Virus record (IMG/VR): IMGVR_UViG_2711768037_000005
Span: 3,040 to 67,039 of that record
Direction: 5' to 3' (one strand)
Length of the DNA stretch: 64,000 nucleotides
Source of the DNA: a virus
Taxonomy: Duplodnaviria; Heunggongvirae; Uroviricota; Caudoviricetes
Positions 1,979-61,853 of this stretch are shown here, piece after piece (within the stretch, counting starts at the first letter, position 1; each line of letters starts with the position of its first letter). The position numbers and the translations under genes were made by a program. Under the pieces are notes generated by a model, which worked only from the letters and a program-made list of their open reading frames with translations, did no database searches and was not told where the DNA came from.

Positions 1979-2021
1979 CTAATGCTAGAAAACAATTTGT
2001 TTAAAAAACAAAGGAAAGCAC

Positions 2022-3362
2022 ATGACAGAACTTTGCCATACAGGACGCGGGCTGTCCGAAGAATTTGATGAAGATTTTCAGAACAGATTGACGGCCTATT
2101 TTTGTCGTGATCACGAGTTTCTTACTCGTGCGGGAGATCTTGTTGTGCCTAGCCAATTTGCCAATGCGGCCAATGCCATATTGGTTAATATGGTTTCGGG
2201 CTATTATCGTATGTACAAGAGCGCGCCCTCTTCATCTGCAATTCTGGATATGCTTAAGCGTGCGAAACGCGATAAGACTATCCGTGAGGAACTATTCGCC
2301 GATGTTGTTGCTGCGTTTAAGCGCATTCTTGCAGAAAAATTGTCCGATACCTCGTACATGGTTGACCAGGTATCAACCTTCGCAAAAAGCGTAGCGTTTG
2401 ATGATGCTCTGATTAAGGCTGCTGAACTGAAAGAGAAAGGCGACTTTCAGGGGGCGATGGCAATCATGGCCAAGGTTCAGCAGATTGGATCGAACGAAGC
2501 GACCGGAATCTATGACTACTACACCTCCGCAAGTGAGCGATTGAAAGCGCGTGAATATGAGGCTTCAGAGGAGTATGTGCCAAACAGCATTACAACTGGA
2601 CTCCCTCTGCTCGATAGGTTGCTGTACCAAAAAGGCTGGGCGAAGCGTGAAATGGTGCTCTTCATGGGGTTCGCTAAATCCGGTAAATCGACCGCAATGG
2701 GTGAGTTTTCCATAAACGCAACGCTTGCTGGCTACAATGTTCTGTATCTCTCGCTGGAGGTTCACACCAACATTTTGTCCGACCGTTTTGATGCAAGATT
2801 GTCGGAGACGGAAATGTCCAAGTTGGTGGAACGGCGCGATGAAGTTCATCGTAAGTTGGCAGAGTTGGGAGCCTCTAAGGGGATTGGTAGTTTGTGGGTT
2901 GTTGAGCGTCCGTCAGGAAGTATGTCACCGGCAGATCTGGACCGTATGCTTAACAGTATGAAAGCCAATGGCATGGTGCCTGACATGGTTGTTGTCGACT
3001 ACGCAGATTTGATGCGTGCCAGTTATGACCTTCGTGATGATCGCGCCAACATTCGTAGTATCTACACCGATTTACGTGCTCTTTATGACAAGCATAACGT
3101 TGCTGGGATCACGGCATCGCAGACAAACCGTGAAGGTGGCGCGTCAGAAGTTGCCACAATGATGCACGCTGCTGACAACATCGAAAAAGTACGTATTGCT
3201 GACCTGGTAATAACGATCAATAAAACCGAAGAAGAAGAAGCGAAAGGAGAGGCTCGTCTCTACTTTGCCGGTTCACGTAACCAGCAGGGAGGGATCAGCA
3301 TTCGCGTTAAACAAAACCTCGAACAAATGCGCTTCATTCAGCGAATCTTAGACGTTACCTAA
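2022..3362 (+). CDS. DnaB-family replicative helicase (RecA-fold C-terminal domain)
   Basis: 446 aa; Walker A GFAKSGKST followed by LYLSLEV (DnaB 'SLEM'-like), Walker B-like MVVVDYADL; immediately upstream of primase; conserved AAAGGAAAGCACATG initiation region. Confidence 0.7.
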   Translation: MTELCHTGRGLSEEFDEDFQNRLTAYFCRDHEFLTRAGDLVVPSQFANAANAILVNMVSGYYRMYKSAPSSSAILDMLKRAKRDKTIREELFADVVAAFKRILAEKLSDTSYMVDQVSTFAKSVAFDDALIKAAELKEKGDFQGAMAIMAKVQQIGSNEATGIYDYYTSASERLKAREYEASEEYVPNSITTGLPLLDRLLYQKGWAKREMVLFMGFAKSGKSTAMGEFSINATLAGYNVLYLSLEVHTNILSDRFDARLSETEMSKLVERRDEVHRKLAELGASKGIGSLWVVERPSGSMSPADLDRMLNSMKANGMVPDMVVVDYADLMRASYDLRDDRANIRSIYTDLRALYDKHNVAGITASQTNREGGASEVATMMHAADNIEKVRIADLVITINKTEEEEAKGEARLYFAGSRNQQGGISIRVKQNLEQMRFIQRILDVT

Positions 3363-3443
3363 AAAATAAGCGTGGAGAACACCTCCACGCTTGATTCATT
3401 GGTGAAACAACTTTTCTTTTGCCAAACCACAAAAGAAAAACAC

Positions 3444-4625
3444 ATGAGCCTTTATGTTATATCAACATTTAGGTTGGTCACAATATTGCCTGTTAAAAGT
3501 GGAATTATCGTGAGCGAGCTGAAAGAGCTAATTGCCGAATTAGATTTTGAACAATGGTTGGATACTGAAGGTATCGTTTATCGACGTGGAGGCGTGAGTG
3601 CTCGCGGTCGTGAAGTGAATATCAAGGAGTGTCCGGTATGCGGCAGCTCCAACTGGAAGGTATATTTCAATCTGACCAGTGGCGTCGGCAAATGCTTCGC
3701 TGGTGATCATCCCGAAGAGATTCAGTTCAATAAGCTGGTCTTCCTCAAGCACTACAGCGGTAAATCACGACGACAGTTCGAGGAATATGTGCAGAACGCT
3801 CTTCTTTCCCAGGGGTGGGCACCAAAGAAAGAAGAGATAGTGCTTGCAAGCACAGTCGAGTTAGAGGGACCACTTGCACTCCCTCGTCATTACGAACTTC
3901 CTATAGATGGCCGTCTTCCAGACTATCTGGTTGAACGAAACATATCGCCTGAAATGGCAAAGTATTTTGACCTACGATACTGCGTCGAAGGCAAGCACGC
4001 TTATGTAGATCCGTATACAGATCAGGTTAAAGGACAGATATTCGATATGCGAATACTGATACCGGTTTACGATCTGGATGGGGTAATGAAGACATTTCAG
4101 GGACGAGACATTACCGGTACAGCAGAACGCCGCTACCTCTTTCCTATGCAGCTTCCAGCTTCAGGTAAGTTTCTCTACAACGGCCATAATGCAGTCGGCA
4201 AACAGACTGTAGTTGTCTGTGAGGGGGCGTTCGATGTTATGGGGGTTAAACGAGCTATTTTTTACGAAGAAACATTACGTGATTACGTGGAACCAATAGG
4301 AACGTTCGGGATGCATCTATCTGGTAACACCACTCAGGATGCAGAAGATCAGTTAGGCGCGTTCCTGACGCTCAAGGCGCGTGGGTTACGTAATGTGATC
4401 ATGATGTGGGATAGTGAAAAGCAAGCTATACGCAACACTATGGCCGCAGCCAGGCGACTGACCAGTATCGGTCTTAATGTCAAAGTTGCGTGTTTGGGTG
4501 AGGAAGGACTCGACCCGGGCGGTGCAACGCCAGAACAAATTATCAAAGCCTATTATCGGGCAAAACCGTATACCAAACAGTTGGAGTTGCAAAGCAAGAT
4601 TTTGGGCATTAAGGCGCTATCGTAA
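3444..4625 (+). CDS. DNA primase (zinc-ribbon + Toprim)
   Basis: zinc ribbon CPVCGSSNW...KCFAGDH; Toprim motifs VVVCEGAFDVMG and MMWDSEKQA; start placed at ATG 3444 after the conserved AAAAGAAAAACACATG region (ORF track extends to 3372). Confidence 0.65.
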   Translation: MSLYVISTFRLVTILPVKSGIIVSELKELIAELDFEQWLDTEGIVYRRGGVSARGREVNIKECPVCGSSNWKVYFNLTSGVGKCFAGDHPEEIQFNKLVFLKHYSGKSRRQFEEYVQNALLSQGWAPKKEEIVLASTVELEGPLALPRHYELPIDGRLPDYLVERNISPEMAKYFDLRYCVEGKHAYVDPYTDQVKGQIFDMRILIPVYDLDGVMKTFQGRDITGTAERRYLFPMQLPASGKFLYNGHNAVGKQTVVVCEGAFDVMGVKRAIFYEETLRDYVEPIGTFGMHLSGNTTQDAEDQLGAFLTLKARGLRNVIMMWDSEKQAIRNTMAAARRLTSIGLNVKVACLGEEGLDPGGATPEQIIKAYYRAKPYTKQLELQSKILGIKALS

Positions 4626-4700
4626 CAAGCGCCGCCAAAATAAGTAGATGGTTACTTATCTTTCTGTAAGAATACTTTCATCTGTTAGCTAGGAGTTGGT

Positions 4701-5483
4701 ATGAAAGACGAAATTCAGAAATTAGCCTGCGACATCATTGATAAAACTGGTTTAGAAATCAGCGAGAGCAATCGGCTAGACATCATTGAAAAAGCCGTCA
4801 ATACGGCAATGGATCATATCGCCACTCGTTTGGTCGAGATCCCGCTACCGGGGCTACCTTATCTGAAGGTTAAGTTGTGCGTATGGGGCGAACCTGCACA
4901 TGCACGACGTTCTGCATTAGTTGTTTTTGTACGCAAAGAAAACTTACGAACTCTAAAAGTGCAGGTTGGGGCGTGGTTTGATGGCAGAGTCATCTATACA
5001 GATACCATTATCTGTCCTCCAGGTGACGAACATATTGAAGCCGTCATTCGAGAATCAATTCGAGCTATGCGCAGTTTAGCTTTGCTGGAAGACAAGCAAA
5101 ACTTTGAAGATTACTTGCTGTCGGTAAAAGCTGAACCAACATTGTCTCTGAAAGCCGATTTCGTAACTCCGACAAACCTGTTGGATGTTTTGATTAATAA
5201 AGGTGCTAGTGATGCCGTAAATGTAATCAGGGAGAGCGAATATTCGACTCTTTGCGACATGTGCAGAAGTCAGTTGGATCTTGTGCATATCGTTGTTGAT
5301 GCGGGGAAGGCATGTGATGGAGTAATAGCGGAATTTGCTGGGAAGATGGTCAGGATTGCTAACGAATTACCGATGATAGAGCAAGAGGCTAAATCATACG
5401 CCACCAATCATGTCACAGAGCTTCTTGCCCCCTATCGCTTAGAAAGCGATCAGCGCAAGATGATTAGCTGGGGAAGTTGGTAA
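4701..5483 (+). CDS. hypothetical protein
   Basis: 260 aa ORF, RBS GGAG upstream. Confidence 0.5.
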   Translation: MKDEIQKLACDIIDKTGLEISESNRLDIIEKAVNTAMDHIATRLVEIPLPGLPYLKVKLCVWGEPAHARRSALVVFVRKENLRTLKVQVGAWFDGRVIYTDTIICPPGDEHIEAVIRESIRAMRSLALLEDKQNFEDYLLSVKAEPTLSLKADFVTPTNLLDVLINKGASDAVNVIRESEYSTLCDMCRSQLDLVHIVVDAGKACDGVIAEFAGKMVRIANELPMIEQEAKSYATNHVTELLAPYRLESDQRKMISWGSW

Positions 5484-5550
5484 GCTCTCTGTGTGTCGTT
5501 TTTTACGCAAATAATGATAGGTAAGCACAAGATTATTTCTGGCGGTAATT

Positions 5551-6021
5551 GTGAAAGCTGATTTGTCAAAAATCCCTTCTATTTCAGGAAATAACGGTTA
5601 TTCACTTCGTTGTGAGGAAGTAAAGATAAACGGTGAGTCGGCATATTGCAGCTATTCCGTTTGCCAGCACACCATTCTTGCCTTCAAAGAAAACCGTCTT
5701 CCTCGAACTTCTTTCCAGTCGTGCGCAACCGCTATTAAAGCAGGCAAATGCAAGGCGTTAAAAATGATGGTTGAAGAGATTCGTAAAGGAGAATCTCTGT
5801 ATTTCGAAGATATGACCGCACTCATTAAGGAGGTTGAAGAACGGAATAAACAAGCCAGAACTATAAAACGAAAACGTGACAGTGTAACGATTAATGACAT
5901 GGTTAAGAAGAGCGCCACATCACAAACAACGATCACTGACGTGTATGCGGCGTTGCTTGAAGAAACAACAAAAGAAACACATGAGCAAATCGATCAACAT
6001 ATGGAGGCAAAACAACAATGA
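5551..6021 (+). CDS. hypothetical protein
   Basis: 156 aa ORF; stop overlaps start of ligase gene. Confidence 0.45.
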   Translation: MKADLSKIPSISGNNGYSLRCEEVKINGESAYCSYSVCQHTILAFKENRLPRTSFQSCATAIKAGKCKALKMMVEEIRKGESLYFEDMTALIKEVEERNKQARTIKRKRDSVTINDMVKKSATSQTTITDVYAALLEETTKETHEQIDQHMEAKQQ

Positions 6022-7340
6022 AAAAGTTGATCGCACTTAAGCATAAGCTGGACGAAATGAAAGCTATGGGAACCAATGCAAAAAAAGAGGCATTGGCCAA
6101 CATGGATGACTTTGAACAAAGCATGGTTTCATTGATGCTCAACCCTTTCATCCGTTTTGGGGTAAAGAAATACAAAGTGGCAGAGCCGCTTAGTGAGTCC
6201 GTCCCAAGTGACGAAAAAGCCATTGATATACTGAATAAGCTGGCCTCTCGCGAGCTGACGGGGAACGCAGCAATAGCAGCTGTTGAGTCTATCGTGGCGT
6301 CAATGTGCGCCGATGGGCAGGACGTGTTCCGTCGTTTCCTCTTAAAAGACCCGAAAGCAGGTGTTGGGATTAGCCTATGCAACAAGGTTTTTGAAAATCC
6401 CATTCCGAAATTCGAGGTGCAGCTGGCGTCACCGTATAAAGAAAAAGGCGACAAATACCCCTTCAAGCCAAATGCTAAAGCAAAATGGCCGATGATTGGC
6501 AGTCTTAAGCTCGATGGTTTGCGAGTAATTTGCGAGGTTATTGTTGACGAGGAAGAGGTTAACTTCCTTTCTCGTACTGGTAATCCAATCACGTCTCTCG
6601 ATCACCTAAAGCCAGCCATGCTCGAATTAGGCAAACTTTCAGGCCACAAACACATCTTCTTCGATGGTGAAGGAACTGCCGGTTCATTTAACCAGTCCGT
6701 ATCTGCATTGCGCAAAAAGAACGTGCAGGCAATTGGCGCTATTTATCATGTTTTCGACTTCTTCCTACCGGAATGGCGAGCACAGGCTAAATCCAAAGAG
6801 TATGCAAAGACAGGTATGAAGCTGAAAGAGCGCCTGGCTATGCTGGTGGCGTTGTTCAAAAACGATCGCAGTGAAGGCTACACACAAGACATTCACCTGC
6901 ATCCGTTCTATATCATCCATAGCCACGAAGACTTCATCGAACGCTTCATGAAACGCCTGGACGATAACGAAGAAGGGGAGATGGGCAAAGATCCGAACTC
7001 TGTTTACGAGTTTAAACGTACCCGCAGCTGGTGGAAGTTAAAAGACGAAGATTCAGAAGATGGTGAAATTATCGACTTTGAGCCGGGCGATCCGGACTCT
7101 GGTTTTGCCAACACGCTTGGAAAAATTGTTATTCGTCTTGAAAACGGCGTCATCGTTCGTGCGAGCGGTATTAAGCATAAATATCTGGACGAGATCTGGA
7201 ACAACAAAGAGAAGTACCGTGGTCGTATTGTTGAGGTTCATTGTCACGAGAAAACACCGGATGGCAGCTTACGCCACCCACGACTGAAATGGCCGCGTTG
7301 CTTACGCGATACAGAAGATCGAATCGGAGATAAAGAATGA
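6018..7340 (+). CDS. DNA ligase (ATP-dependent type, by size)
   Basis: 440 aa; adenylation motif GSLKLDGLRV (KxDG); size fits phage ATP-dependent ligases rather than ~670 aa NAD-dependent LigA. Confidence 0.65.
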   Translation: MKKLIALKHKLDEMKAMGTNAKKEALANMDDFEQSMVSLMLNPFIRFGVKKYKVAEPLSESVPSDEKAIDILNKLASRELTGNAAIAAVESIVASMCADGQDVFRRFLLKDPKAGVGISLCNKVFENPIPKFEVQLASPYKEKGDKYPFKPNAKAKWPMIGSLKLDGLRVICEVIVDEEEVNFLSRTGNPITSLDHLKPAMLELGKLSGHKHIFFDGEGTAGSFNQSVSALRKKNVQAIGAIYHVFDFFLPEWRAQAKSKEYAKTGMKLKERLAMLVALFKNDRSEGYTQDIHLHPFYIIHSHEDFIERFMKRLDDNEEGEMGKDPNSVYEFKRTRSWWKLKDEDSEDGEIIDFEPGDPDSGFANTLGKIVIRLENGVIVRASGIKHKYLDEIWNNKEKYRGRIVEVHCHEKTPDGSLRHPRLKWPRCLRDTEDRIGDKE

Positions 7341-7517
7341 TGCTCGGCTGGATGATTGCATTTTTAGCAGTTGGTTTTTTCATAGGTATTGTGGTGATGT
7401 CCAGTTGCATCAATGACTACATTAAAAGCGGTGTTATAGAAAGACGCGGTCGTATTTATCGCATTGTAGAAATAACCAACACCCTGAAGGAGATTAAGGA
7501 TGATCGTATTAAGTAAA
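7338..7517 (+). CDS. small membrane protein (59 aa)
   Basis: ATGA overlap with ligase stop; N-terminal hydrophobic helix MMLGWMIAFLAVGFFIGIVVM; C-terminal motif GRIYRIVEIT shared with neighbouring small ORFs; below the 60-aa ORF-track cutoff. Confidence 0.4.
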
Positions 7518-7860
7518 CGGGAGAAGGAAACGCTTCATGAAATCAGTAAGTGGCCGGAGTTCCCTGAGTACTGGAAGCCTAAAACGCGAGCTTAGTTAGA
7601 GCGTTTAGGGTTGGTTGCAAACGTTTCTGAAACGTGGTGTTCGGCCAACTACCAGTTAACTGATAAAGGGAAAGTATTGCTACAGCAATTAGTAGAATCA
7701 GGAGCGTTAAAATGATTCCATATATCTCATTAGCTTTTATGGGGCGCTTCCTTATCGGCTTCGGCATCTGTCGTGACTTAATTAAGCAGGAACTTAAAAC
7801 CAAAACACTGTGCATCGGAAAGCGTGTGTATCGGGTAGTTCATGAAACAAAGGTTAGAAA

Positions 7861-8918: not shown

Positions 8919-8993
8919 GATGGTGTAGCTCAGCGGTAGAGCAGTTGGCTGTTAACCAACTGGTCGGTGGTTCGAATCCACCCACCATCGCCA
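8919..8993 (+). tRNA. tRNA-Asn (anticodon GTT)
   Basis: cloverleaf traced by hand: acceptor GATGGTG/CACCATC, D-arm GCTC-AGCGGTA-GAGC, anticodon arm GTTGG-CTGTTAA-CCAAC, T-arm GGTGG-TTCGAAT-CCACC, encoded CCA. Confidence 0.85.
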
Positions 8994-8998
8994 ATTTA

Positions 8999-9085
8999 GG
9001 GGAGTTAGTCCGTAGAGGTAGCGGTGTAGACTGTAAATCTACTGTCATGGCGACTCGGGTGGTTCGACTCCATCACTCCCCACCA
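8999..9085 (+). tRNA. tRNA-Tyr (anticodon GTA), long variable arm
   Basis: acceptor GGGGAGT/ACTCCCC; anticodon arm GTAGA-CTGTAAA-TCTAC; long variable arm; T-arm GGTGG-TTCGACT-CCATC; encoded CCA; D-arm atypical. Confidence 0.7.
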
Positions 9086-9089
9086 AATT

Positions 9090-9165
9090 GCCGGTTTAGC
9101 TCAGTTGGTAGAGCGGCTGCCTTGTAAGCAGGATGTCAGCGGTTCGAGTCCGTTAACCGGCACCA
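9090..9165 (+). tRNA. tRNA-Thr (anticodon TGT)
   Basis: acceptor GCCGGTT/AACCGGC; D-arm GCTC-AGTTGGTA-GAGC; anticodon loop CTTGTAA; T-arm AGCGG-TTCGAGT-CCGTT; encoded CCA; one mismatch at the base of the anticodon stem. Confidence 0.75.
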
Positions 9166-9656
9166 ACATAATATTGAGAACATTGGCGTAACGGGTTCAT
9201 ATCCCAATTTATGAATAAATGTTGCGTTGCCGCGTGACAACCAGTGTTCTCAACATTGTGGTGAATGCACAGGCTGATGTGCCGCAACTACAGTAGTGCG
9301 CGCTTTGCGGGGCTTGCTACAACCCTGTGTCGGAGATCAGCGCCGACCATCACAATTTGGCTCTCTTGCAACAGCATAACGCTGAAATATGTCCAATCTG
9401 GTGCGGCCTGTTCACCCGCCGTTAGCTCCACGAAACGGAGCGCACAACAGGAAAGAGCATTGAGAACCGCCGACTGCCCTGTTTGAAGCGTAAGTCCGTG
9501 CAAACGTCATACAGTGCTCTTTTCGTTGTGGTTGATGCGCAGACTGATGCGCGGAAAGAAATGCCCCAGCGACACACGAGGCGAGTTCACACACTGCATT
9601 GCAGTCAGTAGCCGGGGTCGCTAAGCCGGAGATCAGTACCGGTAACCACAACAATT

Positions 9657-9743
9657 GGAGAGTAGGGAGCATGGTGCTCAAGCGGTCTTGAAAGCCGTCC
9701 CATTGCGCAAGCGATGATGGTTCGATTCCATTACTCTCCGCCA
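9657..9743 (+). tRNA. tRNA-Ser-like (anticodon TGA), type II with long variable arm
   Basis: acceptor GGAGAGT/ACTCTCC; anticodon arm GCGGT-CTTGAAA-GCCGT (two G-U pairs); T-arm GATGG-TTCGATT-CCATT; encoded CCA; D-arm short and atypical, so could be degenerate. Confidence 0.55.
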
Positions 9744-9744
9744 G

Positions 9745-9824
9745 ACACAGCGTTGAGCGGTTTGGCCTTTTAATCAACCAGATTAAGACTCCGCTAACAT
9801 AAACCAAACCGCTCAACGCTGTGT
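9745..9824. repeat. perfect 21-bp inverted repeat hairpin (ACACAGCGTTGAGCGGTTTGG ... CCAAACCGCTCAACGCTGTGT) immediately 3' of tRNA-Ser
   Basis: arms read directly; ~38-nt loop; one of a family of (A/G)TTGAG...CTCAA hairpins in the tRNA region. Confidence 0.7.
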
Positions 9825-21948: not shown

Positions 21949-22977
21949 ATGTCTAAGACATTACTTGATTTGCTTAACAAAACTCGTGAAGACATTGCCG
22001 CCAAACGTGGTAACAACGTTGATCTGACTCGTTTAAAAGATGGCGTCAACTATATCCGTATCTTCCCGAATAAAGACGACCCAAACGGTAAGTTCTTCCA
22101 GACTTTCGGTATGCACTACGTTAAGTATCAGAACGAGGAAGGTAAAGAAGCAACCAACGCTTATATTTGTGAGCAACATACTCACGGTCGCGCTTGTCAG
22201 CTATGCGAAATGGTGATGGAAGGTCGCGCTCGTCACAAGGGTAACAAAGCAATGGAAGAACGCATCGGTCAAATGCGTGCCACTCCTCGCTACCTGGTCA
22301 ACGGCATTCTTTCTGCTCGTGAGGATTTCGCAGATGCTGAGAAATGCCAGTTAATCGAGCTGCCGTCTACTGTATTCGATGATATCTGCAAAGCAATCAC
22401 CGAAGACATCGCTGATGATATCGGCAATCCACTGAGCAAAGAGGAAGGCTACGCATTCCTGATTAAACGTACTGGCTCTGGTCGCGATACCAAATATGAC
22501 GTCTCGCCTAAGCGTAAAGTCTACAAAGGCGATATCGAAGATAAATTCTGGAACACCCAGCATGATCTGATCGCATACGCAAATCAGGCTGATGAAACTC
22601 GTCTTCTGTCGACAGTTCGCACTATGGGTCGTCTGATTGGCATCGCTGCACCAACTGCCGCAGCATCTGCACCAGCAATTTCCTCAACCGCGAAAACATC
22701 GGCCGCGGCACTGCCTGGATTTGGCTCTGTCACTGGTCATACGGAGGGTGCGACTGCTGTAGCTACCGCTCACACCCCAGCTTCTGAACCAACCAGTCTG
22801 GTTGATGAAGAAATCCTCCGTGCCGTTGAAACTGAATTTAAACCAGAAGCAAGTTCCGCTGCCGTTGCAGTATCAGTCAAAGAGTCTGAAGCAGTCGCAG
22901 CGACATCTGTAGCAGCCGCATCTGCGACGGAAGATGAAGGTCTGGATGACCTACTGAGAGAGCTGGACTCTCTGTAA
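21949..22977 (+). CDS. single-stranded DNA-binding protein, T4 gp32-like
   Basis: 342 aa; NYIRIFPNKDDPNGKFF resembles gp32 AVIRFLPSKNDEQAPF; zinc ligand cluster CEQHTHGRACQLCE; Ala/Ser-rich linker and acidic C-terminal tail DEGLDDLLRELDSL like gp32. Confidence 0.7.
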   Translation: MSKTLLDLLNKTREDIAAKRGNNVDLTRLKDGVNYIRIFPNKDDPNGKFFQTFGMHYVKYQNEEGKEATNAYICEQHTHGRACQLCEMVMEGRARHKGNKAMEERIGQMRATPRYLVNGILSAREDFADAEKCQLIELPSTVFDDICKAITEDIADDIGNPLSKEEGYAFLIKRTGSGRDTKYDVSPKRKVYKGDIEDKFWNTQHDLIAYANQADETRLLSTVRTMGRLIGIAAPTAAASAPAISSTAKTSAAALPGFGSVTGHTEGATAVATAHTPASEPTSLVDEEILRAVETEFKPEASSAAVAVSVKESEAVAATSVAAASATEDEGLDDLLRELDSL

Positions 22978-26468: not shown

Positions 26469-26496
26469 AGGCGTCCAGTTGGACGCCGTTTTATTC
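26469..26496 (+). terminator. rho-independent terminator
   Basis: CAGGCGTCC-AGT-TGGACGCCG followed by TTTTATT. Confidence 0.65.
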
Positions 26497-26546
26497 TCGT
26501 TATTATCACACACAAGAAAACAATTTGTTAAAAGGTTAAGTTAATT

Positions 26547-39978: not shown

Positions 39979-40083
39979 CATATGGTGGGGTATAACCCCA
40001 CCTTCTCTTTGATTTGTAAGCCTTGTTTAAACAAATAAGATAACAACTTGTTTAAACACATCAAAAAGCAAAAGGAAAAACAC

Positions 40084-41226
40084 ATGTCATATTCAACGTT
40101 CCGTTTGGGTGCTAATGATGCAACCAAAGAGCCTATGTTCCTCGGACAATCTGTCAACGTGGCACGTTACGATCAGCAAAAATACCGTGATTTTGAAAAG
40201 TTGATTGAACGTCAATTGTCTTTCTTCTGGCGGCCGGAAGAAGTTGATATTTCGAGCGATCGTATCGACTTCAACACGAAGCTGCGGGACCACGAACGTC
40301 ACATTTTTCTGAGCAATCTCCGTTATCAAACGTTACTCGATTCAGTTCAGGGACGTAGCCCAAATGCAACGCTGCTGCCGCTTATCTCTATTCCTGAACT
40401 GGAAACGTGGGTTGAAACATGGTCTTTCTCTGAGACTATCCATAGCCGCAGCTACACCCACATTATTCGTGGCATGGTGGACGATCCGAGCATTGTTTTT
40501 GACGGTATTGTTACGGATGAAGAAATCATCAACCGAGCGATCAGTATCTCTGCTGAATATGACAGGCTTTATGGGATGACCTGCGAGCGCCAGTCGTTAG
40601 GTGAGAAAGAGTTTGAACGTCTGTACGTAAATGAATATGGCTGGGAGCCATATCCTTTGCACCGTCAGCTTTTCCGCACGTTGGTGTCCATTAATGCGCT
40701 TGAGGCGATCCGTTTCTATGTAAGTTTTGCATGTACGTTTGCCTTTGGCGAACGGAAGTTGCTTGAGGGTAACACCAAAATTATGCGCTTTATTGCCCGT
40801 GATGAAGCTCTGCATTGCGAAGGAACTGAACGCATGATCCGCTTCATGCGTACCGGTCGCGAAGGTTTATTGTGGAAAGAGATTGCTGCTGATGAAGAAA
40901 ACGTCATTTACGACACCATGAAATCAGTCGCCGAACAAGAAATGAACTGGGCAGACTATCTCTTCAAAGACGGTTCGATGATTGGTTTAAACGCGGATAT
41001 TCTCAAAACCTATGTAAAATACCGCACCAATCTGGCTATGAATCGTCTTGGCCTGAAGGCTTTATTTCCAGAAGTTACCACTGATCCGCTGGTCTGGATG
41101 AACAAGTGGTTGTTAACCGACACACTGCAAATTGCACCACAAGAGGCAGAGCAAAGCACATATCTGGTAGGTCAGATCGATTCTACCGTGGATAAGGCTT
41201 CTCTAAGCCAGTTTGCAGACCTGTAA
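40084..41226 (+). CDS. nrdB: ribonucleoside-diphosphate reductase beta subunit (class Ia)
   Basis: near-collinear with remembered E. coli NrdB ([33 protein letters not shown]); start at ATG 40084 after AAAAGGAAAAACACATG (ORF track extends to 40048). Confidence 0.95.
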
Positions 41227-42342: not shown

Positions 42343-43446
42343 GTGTCACTCCTTTTGAATCGTGAGCATACGAACGGTCAGGTAACAAACGCATCGTATG
42401 CAAAAGTTATTGAGACGGTGCTTAAAAGCGGCGTGCAGGCTGATGATCGCACAGGCACTGGTACTTTAAGCACCTGCTACGTTCCCTCTTACTACATGCT
42501 TACTGGTGGGACTGTGCCGCTTATTTCTGGAAAGGCGGTAAATCTTAAGCCACTGCTTGTCGAACTTGAGTGGTATCTGAAAGGCACGGGCAACATCCAA
42601 TTTCTCAAGGATAACGGCGTTAAGATTTGGGATGCATGGGCCGATGAGAATGGCGATTTGGGGCCGGTTTACGGTAAGCAGTGGCGTCGATGGGAAGATA
42701 CCCGCATCGTGAGCCATAGTGAATATCTGAGCAAGATCGCTACTTTCCGTGAACGCGGGTACAAAGTCGAGGGATACCTGGGTATCAGTGAAGATCGCGT
42801 AGTGCTGTCCCGTGAAATCGATCAGCTACAGCGTATTGTCGATACACTGCGCACGAACCCTACCGATCGTCGCATCATGCTTAACGCATGGAACGTAGGC
42901 GAGCTTGAGGATATGAAACTGCCACCTTGCCACTTTGTCTTCTCTTTGTGGAGTCGTGAGCTGGATTTTGAAACCCGTTTAACGATGGCAACTGACATTG
43001 GTCTTCAACACAGTCGCCTCGGTTACGAGTCTATCTACACCAAGATGCTATACGATCTGGAGATGGACGGCAGTGTTACTGAAGCTGAACTGGATGAACT
43101 TGGAATCCCCAAACGCATCCTCAACTCCTGCCTCGTACAGCGTAGCGTAGACACTTTTGTTGGTATGCCATTCAATATTGCTGGCTATGGCATTCTCACT
43201 CATTTTCTCGCGAAGATTACGGGTCACATGGCCGGTGCATTTGTGCATTTTGGCTTTGACGTGCATTTGTACAACAACCACATGGAAGGTGTGTGTGAGC
43301 TAATGAAACGACAGGCTCCAGAGCATTCAGATCCGGTCGTTATTTTCCCTCATGAATGGTCAGAGTTGGATGATTTCAAATGGGACGAGGTTTTAATTCT
43401 TGGCTATGACCCTCTACCGTGGATCAAGGTTCCAGTGGCGGTGTGA
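42343..43446 (+). CDS. thyA: thymidylate synthase with internal insertions
   Basis: blocks DRTGTGTLS, IWDAWADENGDLGPVYGKQWRRW, RRIMLNAWNVGELEDMKLPPCHFVF, VGMPFNIAGY, YDPLPWIKVPVAV collinear with E. coli ThyA; ~45-aa insertion after the catalytic PCH; start set to GTG 42343 with RBS GAGG. Confidence 0.85.
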   Translation: MSLLLNREHTNGQVTNASYAKVIETVLKSGVQADDRTGTGTLSTCYVPSYYMLTGGTVPLISGKAVNLKPLLVELEWYLKGTGNIQFLKDNGVKIWDAWADENGDLGPVYGKQWRRWEDTRIVSHSEYLSKIATFRERGYKVEGYLGISEDRVVLSREIDQLQRIVDTLRTNPTDRRIMLNAWNVGELEDMKLPPCHFVFSLWSRELDFETRLTMATDIGLQHSRLGYESIYTKMLYDLEMDGSVTEAELDELGIPKRILNSCLVQRSVDTFVGMPFNIAGYGILTHFLAKITGHMAGAFVHFGFDVHLYNNHMEGVCELMKRQAPEHSDPVVIFPHEWSELDDFKWDEVLILGYDPLPWIKVPVAV

Positions 43447-49359: not shown

Positions 49360-49507
49360 TAAGTAAGTGTTTACTCATCACTTTAAATCATGTATCTTAT
49401 CGGCGTCAGGATGACAATGTGTCGGTAAGACACAGTTCCAGGATGGAACAAGAAAGGCGGCTGGCAATCGCCAGCCGCAACTCTTTCTGACACTGGATGG
49501 GGTCCAT

Positions 49508-50200: not shown

Positions 50201-50293
50201 CGGCTGTTAGACCAAATGCATTGACCATCTTTGCGTAAGCAATTTATGTAACTAAAAAACAACTTGTTTTAACAAATAACAAAAGGAAAACAC

Positions 50294-50878: not shown

Positions 50879-50879
50879 G

Positions 50880-50909
50880 ACAAGGGCCAGATGGCCCTTG
50901 TGTTTCGTT
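50880..50909 (+). terminator. rho-independent terminator
   Basis: ACAAGGGCC-AGA-TGGCCCTTGT followed by GTTTCGTT. Confidence 0.55.
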
Positions 50910-51016
50910 GACCGAAATAGATAGTTTGCGCCTTTACGTTTAGCTTTCTCCCCTTTTATGCAACATCACAATAAAGCCAATAAGAAAACAACTTGTTTAA
51001 CCATTAGGAAAAACAC

Positions 51017-51586
51017 ATGTGCAAGAAATGCAAAGCGATAGCTGATGAACAAAACGCCCTATTAGAAGAAATGGATGCTAATGAACTGGTCAAAATGTTA
51101 GCCATTCTTCGAGGAATAGAAGACGTTTCCATATTTGAGAGAGTGGTTACAGCACTTAATTTTGAGTCCACCTTTGAAGAGCCAACTCAGGTTGTAGCTT
51201 TAGCACATCATTTCGGTGTTCATTACCTTGCTGAAAAAGAGAGAGCCGATAAGTTGCAAGCGACTTTGGATATGGTGAGCGAGACTCAAGGAACTCATGA
51301 CGGTAACAAAAGTGAGACGATTATTGCCAGCAAAGATCGTGAAATTGCCGGGCTTAAATCCTCTCTAACGATGTTGATGTCTGCATTCAATCTGATGTCT
51401 TCTCAGGCGGGTTATAAAATGCCATCACTAAACAGCGACGATCCGATGGTAGTTCGTCAGCTTTTAGGAGCAATGGCTGACCAACTCGACGACACAAAGA
51501 GTCGCCTTGAAGACATGATGCGTGAGTTAAGCCATCGACATAACCTCGCAACACAACCACACAAAGCCTTTCAAAGCTCTAATTGA
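51017..51586 (+). CDS. hypothetical protein
   Basis: 189 aa ORF after AACAACTTGTTTAA motif and GGAAAAACACATG. Confidence 0.5.
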   Translation: MCKKCKAIADEQNALLEEMDANELVKMLAILRGIEDVSIFERVVTALNFESTFEEPTQVVALAHHFGVHYLAEKERADKLQATLDMVSETQGTHDGNKSETIIASKDREIAGLKSSLTMLMSAFNLMSSQAGYKMPSLNSDDPMVVRQLLGAMADQLDDTKSRLEDMMRELSHRHNLATQPHKAFQSSN

Positions 51587-51640
51587 TCTGATATGGCCGC
51601 ATGATCGGCCATATTATGTTGATAAAAACAAGGATGAAAA

Positions 51641-51922: not shown

Positions 51923-51928
51923 CAATAA

Positions 51929-52542: not shown

Positions 52543-52645
52543 TCAATGCCTTTATTTTAAGTATTGCCTGTTAATTTCTATTTAGCACCTTTTTATTTTT
52601 GAAATAATTGCATCATTAAACAAATCATTTCTTAATGGTGCAATT

Positions 52646-54331: not shown

Positions 54332-54392
54332 TAGGTAAATACTTACCTAATTTGTGTAAGAATGTAGTTACTAAACGATAAGAGAAAAACAC

Positions 54393-55477: not shown

Positions 55478-55507
55478 ACGCTACAAATCCTTCGGCATGA
55501 ATAAATA

Positions 55508-55575
55508 AAGGCCATAAGTTGTGGCCTTAAATAAATTGTTTTCTACCTTTTCTTGTTTGTGAAAATAACCACGAC
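55508..55575. repeat. ~65-bp direct repeat unit, copy A (GC hairpin AAGGCCATAAGTTGTGGCCTT + AAATTGTTTTCTACCTTTTCTTGTTTGTGAAAAT)
   Basis: ~85% identical by eye to copy B at 61781-61853; hairpin plus T-rich tract looks like terminator plus promoter/operator. Confidence 0.6.
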
Positions 55576-55596
55576 TAGAAAACAACGGAGTTAAGA

Positions 55597-57624: not shown

Positions 57625-58126
57625 CTATCAGGCACTGCGTGAGGCGGCAGAGCGTGCAATTCCGGCAATGGAACGCCTGTTAATGTTGCCAGTTGATGAT
57701 GAGCTGATAAGCGAACAGGAACTTAAAGATAGCGGTGTTGATATTGATGCGCTCAACGCCTTCAAATTTCTGGCCGGACCAGAAACCGTGCTGGCGCTAC
57801 TGGATGAGAGCAACGCATTAGAGGAAACGCGTATCAACGATGTTTGTCGTATTGCAGAACTAACAAAACAACTGGAGTTGGCAAAATCAAAACTCAACGA
57901 GCAGCGTGAGTATTACGAGGGCGTTATCTCGGATGGAAGTAAGCGTATTGCTGAACTGGAAGCGCGGGAAGTTCAATTACCGACTCGCTACGACCTTCGA
58001 TATGGACACCCGATAAATGCAGATGAGCGACATGTCATGATACCTAAAGAAAATGGCAGTTGGCTTTACCTGATTGACCTAGAACACGCATTACGCGTCG
58101 CTGGCATTCGCATCAAAGGAGAGTGA
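57611..58126 (+). CDS. hypothetical protein (Ead/Ea22-like N-terminus?)
   Basis: 171 aa; N-terminus [16 protein letters not shown] resembles lambdoid Ead/Ea22-like proteins as remembered; tentative. Confidence 0.4.
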
Positions 58127-58127
58127 G

Positions 58128-58451
58128 ATGGCCACATCGCATTATGCAATCACCCAGGAAAAAGTATTTCGCTTGCTCGAACGTCTGGAGGCGCTCGCCA
58201 CGGAGGAAGATATATCCCCGGAGATGCTGGTTGAGTGCAGCCGTGTGATATTGCGTCACAAGAACGACATCGCGCGGCTGACATCTGGCGCACCATCCGT
58301 ATCAGCCAGTCCAACGCTTTATTGCAGCTTCTGCAACAAATCCCAGCACACCGTTAAAAAGTTAATTGCCGGGGACAACGTTTTCATCTGCAACGAGTGC
58401 GTGAAAGATTGCAACAACATTATCCAGGAAGATCAAAGGGAATCAGCATGA
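58128..58451 (+). CDS. protein with C-terminal ClpX-type C4 zinc-binding domain (ZBD) fused to a novel N-terminal region
   Basis: C-terminal [39 protein letters not shown] is ~75% identical by eye to the E. coli ClpX N-domain [39 protein letters not shown], including all four Cys; no AAA+ module follows. Confidence 0.75.
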
Positions 58452-59002
58452 AATTTTCCAAATTTTCTGAGTTGGTGAATCGTATTTTGTCCAACAACCA
58501 CAGCCATCGTCGCGATATGGATGTAACGATCGTTGTTCATTCGCCTGGTCGCATCGGTTCAACACCATCAGTTGAGGTTCAGTCAATTCAGGCGGGTTTT
58601 GATTGGGATGCCGGGCAAGTGATGATTTTTCCAGCACAGCCACTGACCACGCTAACACCAGAGCAGGTTGCTGATATCACTGATAGTGTGCGCAAAGGTC
58701 AGTCTTGGCACGCGTATCAGGAATACAAGAAGCATAAAGAGCAGTTGGAAAAATTGTCGATGGAGTTGGAAGCCGCTAAACAGCGGGAAAAAGATCTGTT
58801 TATGGAAAATGTTCGACTTAAGTCAGGTATAGCCGGTCTGATACACCTCGGTATTCGATATGCGGATGTTGAGGTCATGAAAATTGCTGGAGATGCCCAG
58901 CTTTCTACTCCATGCACTGACAGCATCATAAACAGCATTGCAGCAGGCATTTTCACCAAAGAGGGGGGTCAGCACGATGAGAACACTAGAAGTTCGCGCT
59001 GA
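58449..59002 (+). CDS. hypothetical protein
   Basis: start at ATG 58449 with RBS AAGGGAA (ORF track extends to 58397). Confidence 0.45.
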
Positions 59003-59161
59003 AGACGTAATCCCTGGTGATGTGCTCATAACATCTAAAGGTCAACAATGTGCGGTTAAATCTTTTTGGATGGAAGATGACAAAGTGACTCTGTTCGGTA
59101 CGGATGGTTCCGAAACTGATTATGACTACGACGAATTGCTTGTTGTTGAGAGAGCTGCCTA

Positions 59162-59584
59162 ATGACCACCTTAACCAAAGAACAGTTAATCTCCCATGCA
59201 CGCGAAAGCGTTAGTTATCTGGAAGACTTGAAAGGACGTGTTAGTAAAGAAGGTGCGGACTGCAAAGTTGTTATTGAGATGGTTGAACGAGATCTAAAAC
59301 TGGCACGAATTGCACTGGCCTCGCTGGAAGCAAAACCAATAGGTGCTTTCCACATTGCAGAACAGCAGGTCGATGGCACAAGTGACTACATCAAGGATGG
59401 AGAATGGCCTATTGATAATGGAATTATTGAGGTCTACGCCGCTCCACCCGTTCCAGTAGTACCGGAAGAAAAACCAATGCCTAATCCTCTTAGCATGTAC
59501 GCGGTTGATGCTGTTGCCGCTATTGCAGAGGTGAGAGGCTGGAACGCCTGCCGTGCCGCTATGCTTCAGGGAAAAGGAGAGTGA
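59162..59584 (+). CDS. hypothetical protein
   Basis: 140 aa ORF. Confidence 0.45.
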   Translation: MTTLTKEQLISHARESVSYLEDLKGRVSKEGADCKVVIEMVERDLKLARIALASLEAKPIGAFHIAEQQVDGTSDYIKDGEWPIDNGIIEVYAAPPVPVVPEEKPMPNPLSMYAVDAVAAIAEVRGWNACRAAMLQGKGE

Positions 59585-59585
59585 T

Positions 59586-60161
59586 ATGACCACTATAACC
59601 GATAAGAAACAGTATCCAGGCGAGCAATATCTTAATGAGCTGATCACCAACATAGAGTTTGCTGCAAGGGCACCAGTTGAAGTCGTGAGAGCAATGGCAG
59701 CAGAGCTACAGAAGCGGCGCGAAGCTGATAGTGCCGAACCTGCAAGTAATCATGAAGAGTTGCCGCTTGATTATCTCCAAGGTCAAAAAGATGGTCTTGA
59801 ATGGGCTGCGCAGCTTGCAGAAGCAAATCACCCACAAACTGGCGACTGGCTTTACGATGACCCGCTGGAGCTGGCTAAAGCTATCAGAAAAGGTCCTGAC
59901 ATGCCCGAATTCGATGGACCAACTCCGGTAACTCCGGATGGCTGGATAAGCTGTAGTGAGCGAATGCCGAAAAAGAATCAGAACGTACTTATTTCGGTGA
60001 ATTTCGATAGTGATCTGGTTGAGCCGCTAATATGCTCCGCACGCTATACCGGAAGCACCTTTCGGCGAGGAGAAGCAACGATTAAGCCGGGCAATGGTGT
60101 TGAGCAGGTAACACACTGGATGCCGCTACCAGAACCGCCGCAGGAGTCGAAGAGTGAATAA
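59586..60161 (+). CDS. DUF551-like protein (lambdoid accessory-region family)
   Basis: C-terminal DGWISCSERMPKK...VTHWMPLPEPP matches the characteristic W-x-P-L-P-E-P-P end of DUF551 proteins as remembered; start at ATG 59586. Confidence 0.5.
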   Translation: MTTITDKKQYPGEQYLNELITNIEFAARAPVEVVRAMAAELQKRREADSAEPASNHEELPLDYLQGQKDGLEWAAQLAEANHPQTGDWLYDDPLELAKAIRKGPDMPEFDGPTPVTPDGWISCSERMPKKNQNVLISVNFDSDLVEPLICSARYTGSTFRRGEATIKPGNGVEQVTHWMPLPEPPQESKSE

Positions 60162-60375
60162 AGCAGAGTTATTTCAGAAAATATCGGCTCTCGCGACTGA
60201 ATGCCACGCTATAGCATCTGAGCTTGATGTTGGCGATGAACGAACCGAGATGTTCGAAATATACAGTGTGCTGCGCAATCTCTGTCGGCGTGGCTACGCC
60301 ACTCAGGTAGGGCGAATAACTAACCCACTGCTCACCTCCTTTGGTGATGATGACTCGAATGAGGATGAAGAATGA
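60154..60375 (+). CDS. hypothetical small acidic protein
   Basis: 73 aa ORF. Confidence 0.35.
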   Translation: MNKAELFQKISALATECHAIASELDVGDERTEMFEIYSVLRNLCRRGYATQVGRITNPLLTSFGDDDSNEDEE

Positions 60376-61226
60376 TGCATAAATCATTAGCCGGTGAGCT
60401 TCAGGAGGAAGTAGATAATACTACCGTTCTATTGGACGATATTATAAGCATTCTTGCGCTTCTTGAGGCTGGCGATTGGTCAGAACATTGCACTAAAACA
60501 GAGCTAGGCGGTCGGCTTGAAAGAGAGATTACACGACTTATTGATGATGCGCAGGAAGCTACAGTCACTAGTTATGAGTTAATCGCTGAAGCCTGGCGTT
60601 TGATGGATGGACAAGATCCTAAAACCAGCGATTGGCATAGCAAGGCTTCGAAGTATTTAAATTCCGATAGGGTAGAAAAAGTTGATGATGTGAAACCGAA
60701 GCCAGTAGACCACGGTTTCCGCGATAACTGCGAATGCTCTAGTTGCCAGACCACGGCCCGTATTTGTTCCGAATTGACAGATAAGTCCAGCCTAATCTAC
60801 GAAGTTAATGTAGGCGGTAATACATGGGGCGAATGCACAAGAGCTGCATACGTAAGAGCAAAAGACAAGGGTGAATTAACCAGAGTTGTTACCCATCACC
60901 CAAATAATGAGCTTAAAGATCAACAGATTAGAGAACTGGTGAACGAGTTGCGGGATATTGCGGTTCAGTACCACGGAACGCAGCAATTGCGGGAGAAAAT
61001 TGCCAGAGCAGTGAATAACTCGCTCAAAGGTGGACAATTTCAACCGAAACGTATACGAATTACGCATATAGGTGAAAACGGCGTAGAAATCCCCCAATTC
61101 TCTGTTGGGGACATCTTTGATGTGTATGGAGAAGAGTTTGGCGAGCCTCACATCACCATGCCTAGTGGCCATGTTTACTGGCTAAGAGCTATGGAGAAAT
61201 ATGGTGATAAATGGGAAGTGTTATGA
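60372..61226 (+). CDS. hypothetical protein
   Basis: 284 aa; contains CECSSCQ. Confidence 0.45.
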   Translation: MMHKSLAGELQEEVDNTTVLLDDIISILALLEAGDWSEHCTKTELGGRLEREITRLIDDAQEATVTSYELIAEAWRLMDGQDPKTSDWHSKASKYLNSDRVEKVDDVKPKPVDHGFRDNCECSSCQTTARICSELTDKSSLIYEVNVGGNTWGECTRAAYVRAKDKGELTRVVTHHPNNELKDQQIRELVNELRDIAVQYHGTQQLREKIARAVNNSLKGGQFQPKRIRITHIGENGVEIPQFSVGDIFDVYGEEFGEPHITMPSGHVYWLRAMEKYGDKWEVL

Positions 61227-61764
61227 GGGATGCGAAGTTATGACTAAATTTGGAAAGCTGGAAGCTCATTTGCTAACTCGTAACTACCGCCATGATGTGC
61301 ATCCATATAGACAGTGGATCGATGAAAGCGAAGGAGTTGTTACATTCCCTCTATACAGGTTTGATGGGATGTTGGCCGGGTATCAGACATACAGACCAGG
61401 CGCTCCTAAGCAGCATAGCAATCCGAAGATGGCCCGGTATTTCACACGAGCGCACGGCAGACAGCTACTATGGGGAACCTATCTTCCTTTGAAAGATGGA
61501 CCTATATGGATAACTGAGTCGATTTTTAAAAGTGCAGCAGTGCACAACGCTGGCGGAAATTCGTGGGCGCTGTTAGGTTCGACTTTCTCAGCAGGATTAC
61601 GTCGTCAACTGGCAATGCTGCCGTATGACTTTCGTGTTATAGGTGACAATGATGCGGCTGGTGAATCACTTGTGAAGTCTTTCGGAAAAGGTTTTGTGGC
61701 ACCGGATCTTGACGAGCTACAACCACATGAAGTGTCTAATTTGATTTTTAGCCATAGCCAATAA
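61201..61764 (+). CDS. Toprim-domain protein
   Basis: 187 aa; conserved Glu (IWITESIFKS) and DxD (VIGDNDAAGE) spaced as in Toprim folds. Confidence 0.4.
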   Translation: MVINGKCYEGCEVMTKFGKLEAHLLTRNYRHDVHPYRQWIDESEGVVTFPLYRFDGMLAGYQTYRPGAPKQHSNPKMARYFTRAHGRQLLWGTYLPLKDGPIWITESIFKSAAVHNAGGNSWALLGSTFSAGLRRQLAMLPYDFRVIGDNDAAGESLVKSFGKGFVAPDLDELQPHEVSNLIFSHSQ

Positions 61765-61780
61765 GCATCCCTTCTCCATT

Positions 61781-61853
61781 AAGGCCACAACTAGTGGCCT
61801 TAAACAATTTGTTTTCTACGTTTTCTTATTTGAGAAAATCACGTTGCTGGCAG
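61781..61853. repeat. ~65-bp direct repeat unit, copy B (hairpin AAGGCCACAACTAGTGGCCTT + AAACAATTTGTTTTCTACGTTTTCTTATTTGAGAAAAT)
   Basis: paired with copy A at 55508-55575. Confidence 0.6.

Follow-up and report, generated by a model that had tools for sequence, protein, structure and literature searches.

What are two short sequences that recur in front of many genes of a tailed-phage genome doing there? The 64,000-nucleotide window analyzed here (positions 3,040 to 67,039 of IMG/VR record IMGVR_UViG_2711768037_000005, Caudoviricetes) carries a 13-base palindrome, AAACAAnTTGTTT, and a near-invariant start context, AAAGGAAAAACAC-ATG, referred to below as the early-gene leader, which the initial annotation had joined into one shared translational operator or promoter-leader cassette. 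With confidence a little above even, we favor an explanation that rests on two separable cis-elements, namely, a palindromic operator placed within repeated terminator-promoter cassettes and an initiation leader specific to one class of genes.

In megablast searches, the window was closest to Escherichia phages CMS-2020a and PhiR41_1 (97 to 98% identity), with Cyrano (pLF82) at 95% and Salmonella phage SSU5 and Klebsiella phage-plasmids at ~80%, and by sequence similarity it is a member of the SSU5/pHCM2 group of phage-plasmids. Members of this group are common in clinical Escherichia, Salmonella, Klebsiella, and Enterobacter, with dfrA-type genes and toxin-antitoxin systems among their cargo. 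The literature that could be searched says next to nothing about how their genes are regulated; we found in it no description of either motif under SSU5, pHCM2, or phage-plasmid promoters and no published transcription-start data for SSU5-like elements. The window holds partition genes, a region of replication, recombination, and nucleotide-metabolism genes, and part of an accessory region, with almost every gene on the plus strand. PhiR41_1, SSU5, and Cyrano were scanned for the palindrome as complete genomes, and Klebsiella pneumoniae AR_0096, a Logan contig, and the Moellerella wisconsensis plasmid pW18-2-b were compared as further relatives.

Distribution of the palindrome and the early-gene leader

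With at most one mismatch allowed, AAACAAYTTGTTT gave 12 strand matches at eight loci (1990, 14104, 26518, 40041, 50257, 50986, 55529, and 61802), against 0.58 expected from 100 dinucleotide shuffles (maximum, 2). These are the eight loci named in the initial annotation, displaced by 0 to 3 nt, and all of them are intergenic in a window of which 12.6% is intergenic (P ~ 6e-8). The early-gene leader, with the consensus (A)ACAAAGGAAAAACAC-ATG, spans about −16 to +3 at each gene. Searching for AAGGAAARCACATG with up to two mismatches gave 11 matches against 1.2 expected from shuffles, and the exact 9-mer AAACACATG occurs 10 times on the plus strand of the window and never on the minus strand. The enrichment test that the initial annotation had proposed was thereby carried out, and neither count was matched in any of the 100 shuffles.

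A weight matrix separated 13 gene starts, at 14.8 to 21.5 bits, from all other starts, at 2.7 bits or less. The earlier figure of more than 14 genes was therefore slightly high, the remainder being a few partial members (14136, 7861, 51641, and 46184), and the seven genes that it had singled out (helicase, primase, cobS, dnaE, SSB, nrdB, and TerB-like) all fall within the 13-member class. Near-identity over 15 to 16 nt at these 13 genes bears out the statement that conservation extends past the Shine-Dalgarno (SD) sequence. The use of the leader to choose start codons was likewise sound, with ATG 3444 preferred over GTG 3372 for the primase gene and ATG 40084 over TTG 40048 for nrdB.

The coupling of the two motifs did not hold up as stated. 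A full leader follows four of the eight palindromes (at the helicase, nrdB, and TerB-like genes and at 51017). Measured from the palindrome end to the ATG, the gap is 16 to 30 nt. Of the other four, the site at 14104 has a partial leader behind it, the site at 26518 has none, and those at 55529 and 61802 form a separate mirrored class placed farther upstream, behind a GGCC hairpin. Conversely, the palindrome is missing at 9 of the 13 leader genes. Because the leader stands behind palindrome cassettes, behind promoters with another palindrome (ATAGGTAA-N4-TTACCTAT; genes 25417 and 54393), and behind an ordinary sigma-70-like promoter (33046), we regard it as an independent module; for the palindrome, the term promoter-leader cassette is nearly right, and the two elements are not one cassette.

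Architecture of the palindrome cassettes

In PhiR41_1, SSU5, and Cyrano, the palindrome is the core of an oriented 17- to 18-bp site, (T/C)AAGAAAACAAnTTGTTT(A/T), present in 16 to 20 copies per genome. The sites precede parA, the helicase gene, cobT, nrdB, the TerB-like gene, terS and the late operon, and many small accessory genes. When 24 site copies from these three genomes were anchored on the palindrome, a common order emerged: a GC-rich hairpin with a T run, a T-rich stretch, a −10-like hexamer, AAC-n-CCA, the palindrome, a leader segment of 0 to 20 nt, the SD sequence, and the ATG. Information content is high over AAGAAAACAA-n-TTGTTTA, with additional conserved positions (taaTaAc.C) upstream. 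The hexamers (GATAAT, TATTAT, GAAAAT, or CACAAT, often preceded by TGn to give TGnGATAAT) have a nearly invariant T at position 6, and the palindrome element lies 12 to 14 nt downstream of them. Under the rule of A2, T6, and at least four of six matches, a hexamer starts 17 to 20 nt before the palindrome at 16 of 26 sites, 7 of these 16 with TGn.

A scan for intrinsic terminators on the plus strand of the window returned GC-rich hairpins with T runs at 25329-49, 26470-87, 37624-45, 42239-57, and 50880-901, the second and the last of which are directly upstream of palindrome cassettes; the GGCC hairpins at 55508 and 61781 have no canonical T run on that strand. In some cassettes a second, mirrored palindrome, AAACAAnTTGTTTTCTAC, is located exactly 51 bp upstream of the first (Table 1), and the AGA extension of the element always points toward the promoter core, in both orientations. 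In the window cassette at 55508, the would-be center of the downstream half-site AGAAAACAAC is 51 bp from the center of the upstream palindrome, and in SSU5 and PhiR41_1 the cassette is built alike, with both palindromes complete and the same distance apart. The half-site and palindrome before nrdB keep their arrangement in SSU5, PhiR41_1, and Cyrano, and the SSU5 orthologue of the site at 14104 (at 42735) is a perfect palindrome.

Three side observations concern these cassettes. Outside the window, two palindromes 25 bp apart stand ahead of the terS/late operon (PhiR41_1, 10676-10760; SSU5, 56-130; Cyrano, 57-130). After them, ~10 nt short of the terS SD sequence, comes a GC-rich hairpin that is conserved and ends in a GTGTGTTTT tail; this terminator-like element could make late expression dependent on read-through. 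The cobT cassette has an inverted repeat ahead of it (CTGCGCGAA...TTCGCGCAG; window 14050-14058 and 14074-14082), whose SSU5 counterpart consists of different letters that still pair (CTGTACGAACAG...CTGTTCGTACAG), a conserved hairpin without a T run. Before gene 52646, a decayed palindrome (AAACAAATCATTT; window 52618-52630) corresponds to a perfect cassette at the orthologous SSU5 site (82468), an instance of site turnover between close relatives.

Conservation of the palindrome and its action as DNA or RNA

In a set of 42 unique sequences from upstream of helicase homologues, neither arm (AGAAAACAA or TTGTTT) changes and the center base is free, whereas the flanks vary and the putative −10 region differs among three clades. 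Since the palindrome is invariant across clades at core genes with diverged flanks, purifying selection appears to act on the palindrome itself. The sites are also kept in the divergent AR_0096 and the Logan contig. In Moellerella pW18-2-b, gene order is kept and perfect palindromes are absent; only two cassette-like half-sites were found, one of which (ATAAGAAAACAAT) is upstream of parA. The initial annotation had offered as its null a trivial consequence of AT-rich SD spacing, with no fixed position relative to start codons in relatives; both motifs do keep their position relative to starts in SSU5, Cyrano, AR_0096, and the Logan contig, and that null is set aside for this reason.

The palindrome had also been read as part of an RNA-level operator. 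Across 21 distinct site variants, however, there were no compensatory base pairs and 16 cells that break pairing; leader RNAs folded at −1.3 to −4.1 kcal/mol, no better than shuffles (z = −0.09 to +0.94), and an Rfam scan of the whole window at the gathering threshold returned tRNAs only. An RNA hairpin was rejected for lack of covariation and of extra stability. Because the arms are invariant and the center is free, because covariation and a folding excess are absent, and because the element occurs in both orientations, with some copies upstream of the predicted −10, we conclude that the palindrome behaves as a DNA site, and these features indicate an operator to which a symmetric dimeric protein would bind. 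It has the features expected of an operator: two symmetric conserved arms around a free center, conservation above that of the flanks, and a promoter location. In a GTDB scan with the 17-base core, the matches listed were mostly single chance matches in AT-rich genomes, and among them the core was multicopy in SSU5-like replicons only, e.g., a Kluyvera contig. To our knowledge, on informal comparison, none of the consensus sites of KdgR, PhoP, NrdR, 434 repressor, Cra, Fur, and RcsB fits the palindrome.

The early-gene leader

An intergenic gap precedes 12 of the 13 leader genes, and no leader was found in the structural-gene region. The leader combines an AAGGA SD sequence with a 7-nt spacer before the ATG, which corresponds to an aligned spacing of ~5 nt on pairing with 16S rRNA. 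The fraction of A+C in the 20 nt before the ATG is 0.81 in leader genes versus 0.52 in others (p = 6e-8), and the region from −30 to +20 folds more weakly (mean of −3.35 versus −5.94 kcal/mol at other starts; p = 0.006). At SSU5 orthologues the leader is kept, with 11 of 12 A[AG]CACATG sites at gene starts, and it recurs in AR_0096 (7 sites in 40 kb) and in the Logan contig; in SSU5 and AR_0096 it is retained even where the SD part differs. The Moellerella plasmid lacks it.

A full leader, AAGAAACAC-ATG, also occurs within the 3' end of the open reading frame (ORF) at 5551-6021 (window 5975-6040), where its ATG begins an ORF of 19 codons (MSKSINIWRQNNNEKVDRT) running across the start of the DNA ligase gene at 6018; SSU5 has the leader in the same place. 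This short ORF may be an upstream ORF or a coupling device.

Candidate regulators

The best candidate for the protein that binds the palindrome is, in our reading of the sequence, the 119-amino-acid partner of ParA encoded at 680-1039. Its sequence pattern (a disordered basic N terminus with an invariant MGDLAK and an invariant core, IKSRTMS...FTRSDVIRAAI) resembles that of a ribbon-helix-helix protein. No Pfam match and no significant structural or PDB sequence match was obtained for it; a sub-threshold match of 20 bits to the aCcr1 family and an AlphaFold2 model (pLDDT, 65.6) with helices where expected make weak evidence for that fold. As a query, the protein matched entries in 797 plasmid records; a 43% homologue in an IncF plasmid is an insertion sequence-disrupted remnant. 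In every relative examined, the parA promoter carries the palindrome (a half-site in Moellerella), as a single copy rather than the array of short repeats that might have served as a centromere or operator. In LF82 lysogens, CYRAN_29, the Cyrano orthologue of the 119-amino-acid protein, is transcribed at 9 times the local background, and the helicase, cobT, and nrdB genes are not listed as expressed (PMC9928086). The parA promoter position, the Moellerella half-site, and lysogen expression fit binding by the ParA partner without proving it. Because the Moellerella half-site lies upstream of parA in a plasmid where nearly all other sites are missing, the comparison points to an ancestral site at parA and to expansion of the regulon in the Enterobacteriaceae lineage. 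Covariation of protein and site was tried as a way to find the binder and was uninformative, as homologues of 63% and 48% identity keep the IKSRTMS/IQSRTMS strand, which would be the part that reads the DNA, and the palindrome is unchanged too.

A second regulator seems to have its own operator. The minus-strand ORF at 13190-13576, a putative helix-turn-helix (HTH) repressor, is 98% identical to the putative Cyrano master repressor, CYRAN_45. Adjoining the start of this gene, at 13604, is CTGGTAAGTGCTTACCGA, one of the copies of the other abundant palindrome, and we provisionally assign the ATAGGTAA-N4-TTACCTAT motif, and not AAACAAnTTGTTT, to the HTH repressor for that reason. This second palindrome (consensus TAGGTAAGTACTTACCTA; 18 bp) is the more abundant of the two, at ~20 to 25 copies per genome. 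It lies over the −35/spacer region of promoters with a TAAGAAT-type −10, has further copies among the structural genes of SSU5 and PhiR41_1, and is kept in the Moellerella relative. Probably it is the first upstream motif to which the initial annotation counted AAACAAnTTGTTT as the second.

Proposed mechanism and points that weigh against it

In the explanation that we favor, a cassette would consist of the terminator of the preceding unit, a sigma-70 −10 element (often the extended TGnGATAAT, with no −35), CCA at the predicted start, the palindrome, and a short leader segment. The palindrome would be centered near +14 in most cassettes and would overlap +1 at the helicase promoter, and the second mirrored copy, 51 bp upstream over the −35 region, would stand five helical turns away. 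A dimeric DNA-binding protein would occupy the sites and block initiation or promoter escape, and at dual sites the bound protein may loop the DNA. We take it to be most likely a repressor because the site lies near +14 or over +1 and because some pairs are five helical turns apart. From this layout we infer promoter activity, the transcription start, protein binding, and repression; 16 to 20 dispersed promoters, including those of parA, helicase, cobT, nrdB, the terS/late operon, and accessory genes, would then answer to one regulator. The early-gene leader, in turn, would be an optimized, class-specific translation initiation region at 13 early, promoter-proximal genes that serve replication, recombination, and nucleotide metabolism; its C/A-rich and essentially unstructured sequence should favor strong and uniform initiation on short leaders of ~20 to 30 nt.

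Several observations weigh against this explanation. A convincing −10 at the canonical offset is present at only three of the six gene-proximal window sites, and a two-hexamer sigma-70 scan of the window called none of these cassettes as promoters, which we attribute to the lack of a recognizable −35. The Moellerella relative does without both the palindrome and the leader. Placement beyond the −10 is what a repressor would call for, but it would suit an antiterminator loading site as well. The richness of the leader in A and C cannot explain ten identical copies of AAACACATG, so that a specific trans-acting factor for the leader has to be kept in consideration. Finally, two palindrome cassettes, CYRAN_102 and CYRAN_109, are modestly expressed in lysogens (PMC9928086), and repression, if any, is for this reason not tight.

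Alternative explanations

A bolder variant, which we hold to be possible but rather unlikely, gives the palindrome to the ParA partner outright. The 16 to 20 copies would then double as centromere-like sites and operators. Through them, the partition system of the plasmid state would directly hold down the helicase, cobT, nrdB, late, and accessory promoters, in a circuit newly expanded in the SSU5 lineage of the Enterobacteriaceae out of an ancestral operator at parA, and the AAGGAAAACAC-AUG leader would be a translational operator for a phage factor. If this were true, the ParA-partner circuit would be a global circuit in the style of KorB, omega, or N15 SopB.

More doubtful is a positive role for the palindrome, as the site of an activator or a Q- or N-like antiterminator that lets polymerase read through the terminators between co-oriented cassettes during lytic growth. 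Promoters without a −35 and with several poor −10 hexamers suggest dependence on a factor; nearly all genes are co-oriented with intrinsic terminators between them, in the late operon a terminator-like hairpin separates the two palindromes from terS close by, and the conserved TAAGAA by the predicted start can be read as resembling a −10-like element in the initially transcribed region. Yet no homologue of Q, N, or another antiterminator was identified, the RNA form has neither stable structure nor covariation, and mirrored copies 51 bp away, upstream of the −35, are typical of paired operators and not of known antiterminator sites.

We give equally low credence to the proposal that the leader, with or without the palindrome, is an RNA operator at which a repressor binds C/A-rich AAGGAAAACACAUG, whether a RegA-like protein, the gp32-like SSB (21949-22977), host CsrA or Hfq, or a GcvB-type small RNA. 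T4 RegA and gp32 and the C/A-rich targets of GcvB are precedents; near-identity over 15 to 16 nt past the SD sequence at 13 genes exceeds what A/C composition would give, the class is confined to early DNA-metabolism genes and absent from late genes, and the gp32-like SSB is encoded here by a gene that itself has the leader. Nevertheless, Pfam returned no RegA or RegB family member among the 40 window proteins scanned, there is no convincing anti-leader in the window (the reverse-strand near-matches are two 2-mismatch sites in coding regions), an unstructured leader with good SD spacing would explain selection without a factor, and the palindrome part behaves in the manner of DNA, not RNA.

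It is improbable that the repeats are mainly recombination scars or module boundaries, copied as cassettes with accessory ("moron") genes and alike through descent and exchange. A 65-bp direct repeat (55504-55569 and 61777-61842; ~86% identity, comprising hairpin, palindrome, and −10 region) does flank a 6-kb ea22/eaA-like module; downstream of its second copy the window and PhiR41_1 differ, a change of sequence that suggests a recombination boundary. Cassettes are also concentrated where the genomes of PhiR41_1, SSU5, and Cyrano vary, in the accessory region, and are nearly lacking from the Moellerella relative. Between cassettes, however, conservation is limited to the arms of the palindrome, the −10, and a few bases at the start site, the spacers being unrelated, and at core genes the palindrome persists across clades whose flanks have diverged. 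Last, we give practically no weight to chance or to trivial products of AT-rich SD contexts, which might be suspected because, among the matches listed, many unrelated AT-rich genomes contain the exact 17-base core once by chance, since the counts went unreached in all shuffles and the sites are strand specific, exclusively intergenic, and conserved at orthologous positions.

Relation to known systems

Among the closest parallels to the proposed operator are dispersed-operator regulons, namely, the C1 operators of P1, KorA and KorB of RK2 (OA and OB, palindromes of 12 to 13 bp), and the dispersed SopB sites of N15. As in those, a short site recurs around the genome of a plasmid or phage, at many promoters that include those of partition and replication genes, and, as with OB of KorB, it is an odd palindrome of 13 bp, at or just downstream of the core promoter and sometimes paired. 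The sequence is unrelated, however, the P1 C1 operators are asymmetric, and the SSU5-type sites lie mostly between the −10 and the SD sequence within terminator-promoter cassettes; no KorA, KorB, C1, or SopB homologue turned up, none having been tested for.

Type Ib partition systems (ParF/ParG of TP228 and delta/omega of pSM19035) offer a second comparison: there, the promoter of parA is bound by a small protein of the ribbon-helix-helix type, which for omega binds at other promoters too. In the window, the gene immediately after that of the 222-amino-acid Walker ParA likewise encodes a small basic protein whose N-terminal tail is disordered, and the parA promoter has its site in every relative examined, whereas here that site is a single 13-bp palindrome and not an array of 4- to 7-bp repeats. 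The ribbon-helix-helix fold of the partner is putative, and we connect it with the other sites purely by inference.

The cassettes also resemble the morons of temperate phages, each a promoter, a gene, and a terminator, in that accessory genes have their own promoter and intrinsic terminator, occupy variable positions, and in some cases are expressed in lysogens; unlike in morons, the same cassette and operator also serve core genes, including helicase, cobT, nrdB, parA, and terS. For the early-gene leader, the parallel is the translational control of T4 early genes, where RegA and gp32 operators overlap initiation regions. In both, early DNA-metabolism mRNAs share an unstructured sequence around the SD and AUG, and a gp32-like SSB is encoded; the leader, in contrast, is C/A-rich (AAGGAAAACAC) rather than U/A-rich as in RegA sites, and RegA itself is absent from the 40 window proteins scanned.

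This kind of control sequence is familiar, and no current concept is overturned. The outcome is a map of promoter-operator cassettes, a second operator type (ATAGGTAA-N4-TTACCTAT) by a putative master repressor gene, and a defined early leader; together these make the circuitry of lysogeny versus lysis and of plasmid maintenance directly testable, and they also provide better start-codon annotation and compact regulatory parts.

Coordinates and further genomic features

Table 1. Positions of the partition genes, palindrome sites, early-gene leaders, and second-palindrome sites (window coordinates unless a relative is named)
Feature	Position	Strand	Remarks
ParA gene	12-680	+	Small Walker-type, 222 amino acids; matches NF041546 and MipZ/AAA_31
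ParA-partner gene	680-1039	+	119 amino acids; directly after type Ib parA, overlapping its stop codon
−10-like TCTAAT	1970-1975	+	Before helicase palindrome; counterpart in PhiR41_1 is TATAAT
Palindrome AGAAAACAATTTGTTTAA	1987-2004	+	Before DnaB-like helicase gene; element invariant in 42 unique relatives, flanks vary
Helicase leader ACAAAGGAAAGCAC-ATG	2006-2024	+	Stands for the 13-member class
Primase leader ACAAAAGAAAAACAC-ATG	3428-3446	+	PhiR41_1 annotation starts at this ATG
Palindrome AAATAATTTGTTT	14104-14116	+	Before CobT-like gene (ATG 14136); −10-like TACATT at 14086-14091
Palindrome AAACAATTTGTTA	26518-26530	+	Before gene 26547; intrinsic terminator 26470-26487; −10-like TATTAT at 26501-26506
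Hairpin with T-rich tail	39984-40002	+	Ahead of nrdB sites
Inverse half-site TTGTTTAAACAA and palindrome TAACAACTTGTTT	40023-40034 and 40041-40053	+	Pair before nrdB (ATG 40084)
nrdB leader AAAAGGAAAAACAC-ATG	40068-40086	+	Same start annotated in PhiR41_1 and Cyrano
Palindrome AAACAACTTGTTT	50257-50269	+	Before TerB-like gene (ATG 50294)
Palindrome AAACAACTTGTTT	50986-50998	+	Before gene 51017; terminator 50880-50901; −10-like CACAAT at 50967-50972
Dual-site cassette	55508-55596	+	Hairpin 55508-55528; mirrored palindrome AAATAAATTGTTTTCTAC 55529-55546; extended −10 TGTGAAAAT 55558-55566; half-site AGAAAACAAC 55577-55586; SD GGAG; ATG 55597
Shortened copy of the 55508 cassette	61781-61842	+	Hairpin; palindrome AAACAATTTGTTTTCTAC 61802-61819; GAGAAAAT
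Leader ATGs, 13 genes	2022, 3444, 16340, 17756, 21400, 21949, 25417, 29113, 33046, 40084, 50294, 51017, 54393	+	In order: helicase, primase, cobS, dnaE, ORF 21400, gp32-like SSB, ORF 25417, ORF 29113, sbcD-like, nrdB, TerB-like, ORF 51017, ORF 54393
Second-palindrome sites	1207, 4641, 8159, 13604, 21846, 25366, 29408, 32915, 37599, 47146, 49360, 54332		
Palindrome pairs 51 bp apart (centers)	PhiR41_1 30183/30234; SSU5 88325/88376 and 93668/93719; Cyrano 93120/93171		

Other features were noted along the way. Just past the par operon is a long, AT-rich, imperfect palindrome (CCTGTTTCTGTATATAAATAATAAGT / ACTTATTATTTATACGGAAGCAGG; window ~1069-1122), and a similar one is found in PhiR41_1 at ~10575-10640, upstream of the terS palindrome pair; the element past the par operon could act as a terminator in both directions, as a centromere, or in packaging. 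The interval between the par operon and the helicase gene is an indel hotspot adjoining a palindrome cassette: in PhiR41_1 (5633-7522) it is ~0.9 kb longer than in the window (1040-2021) and includes a minus-strand ORF. In the tRNA cluster at 8919-9743, ARAGORN calls Asn, Tyr, Thr, and Ser, of which Rfam at the gathering threshold confirms the first three only, and the Ser call (9657-9743) overlaps a minus-strand ORF at 9412-9855. Toward the end of the window, a LexA-box-like sequence, TACTGTATAGATGAACAGTA (CTGT-N8-ACAG; 62040-62081), directly precedes the gene for a UmuD/LexA-like S24 peptidase (62082-62471).

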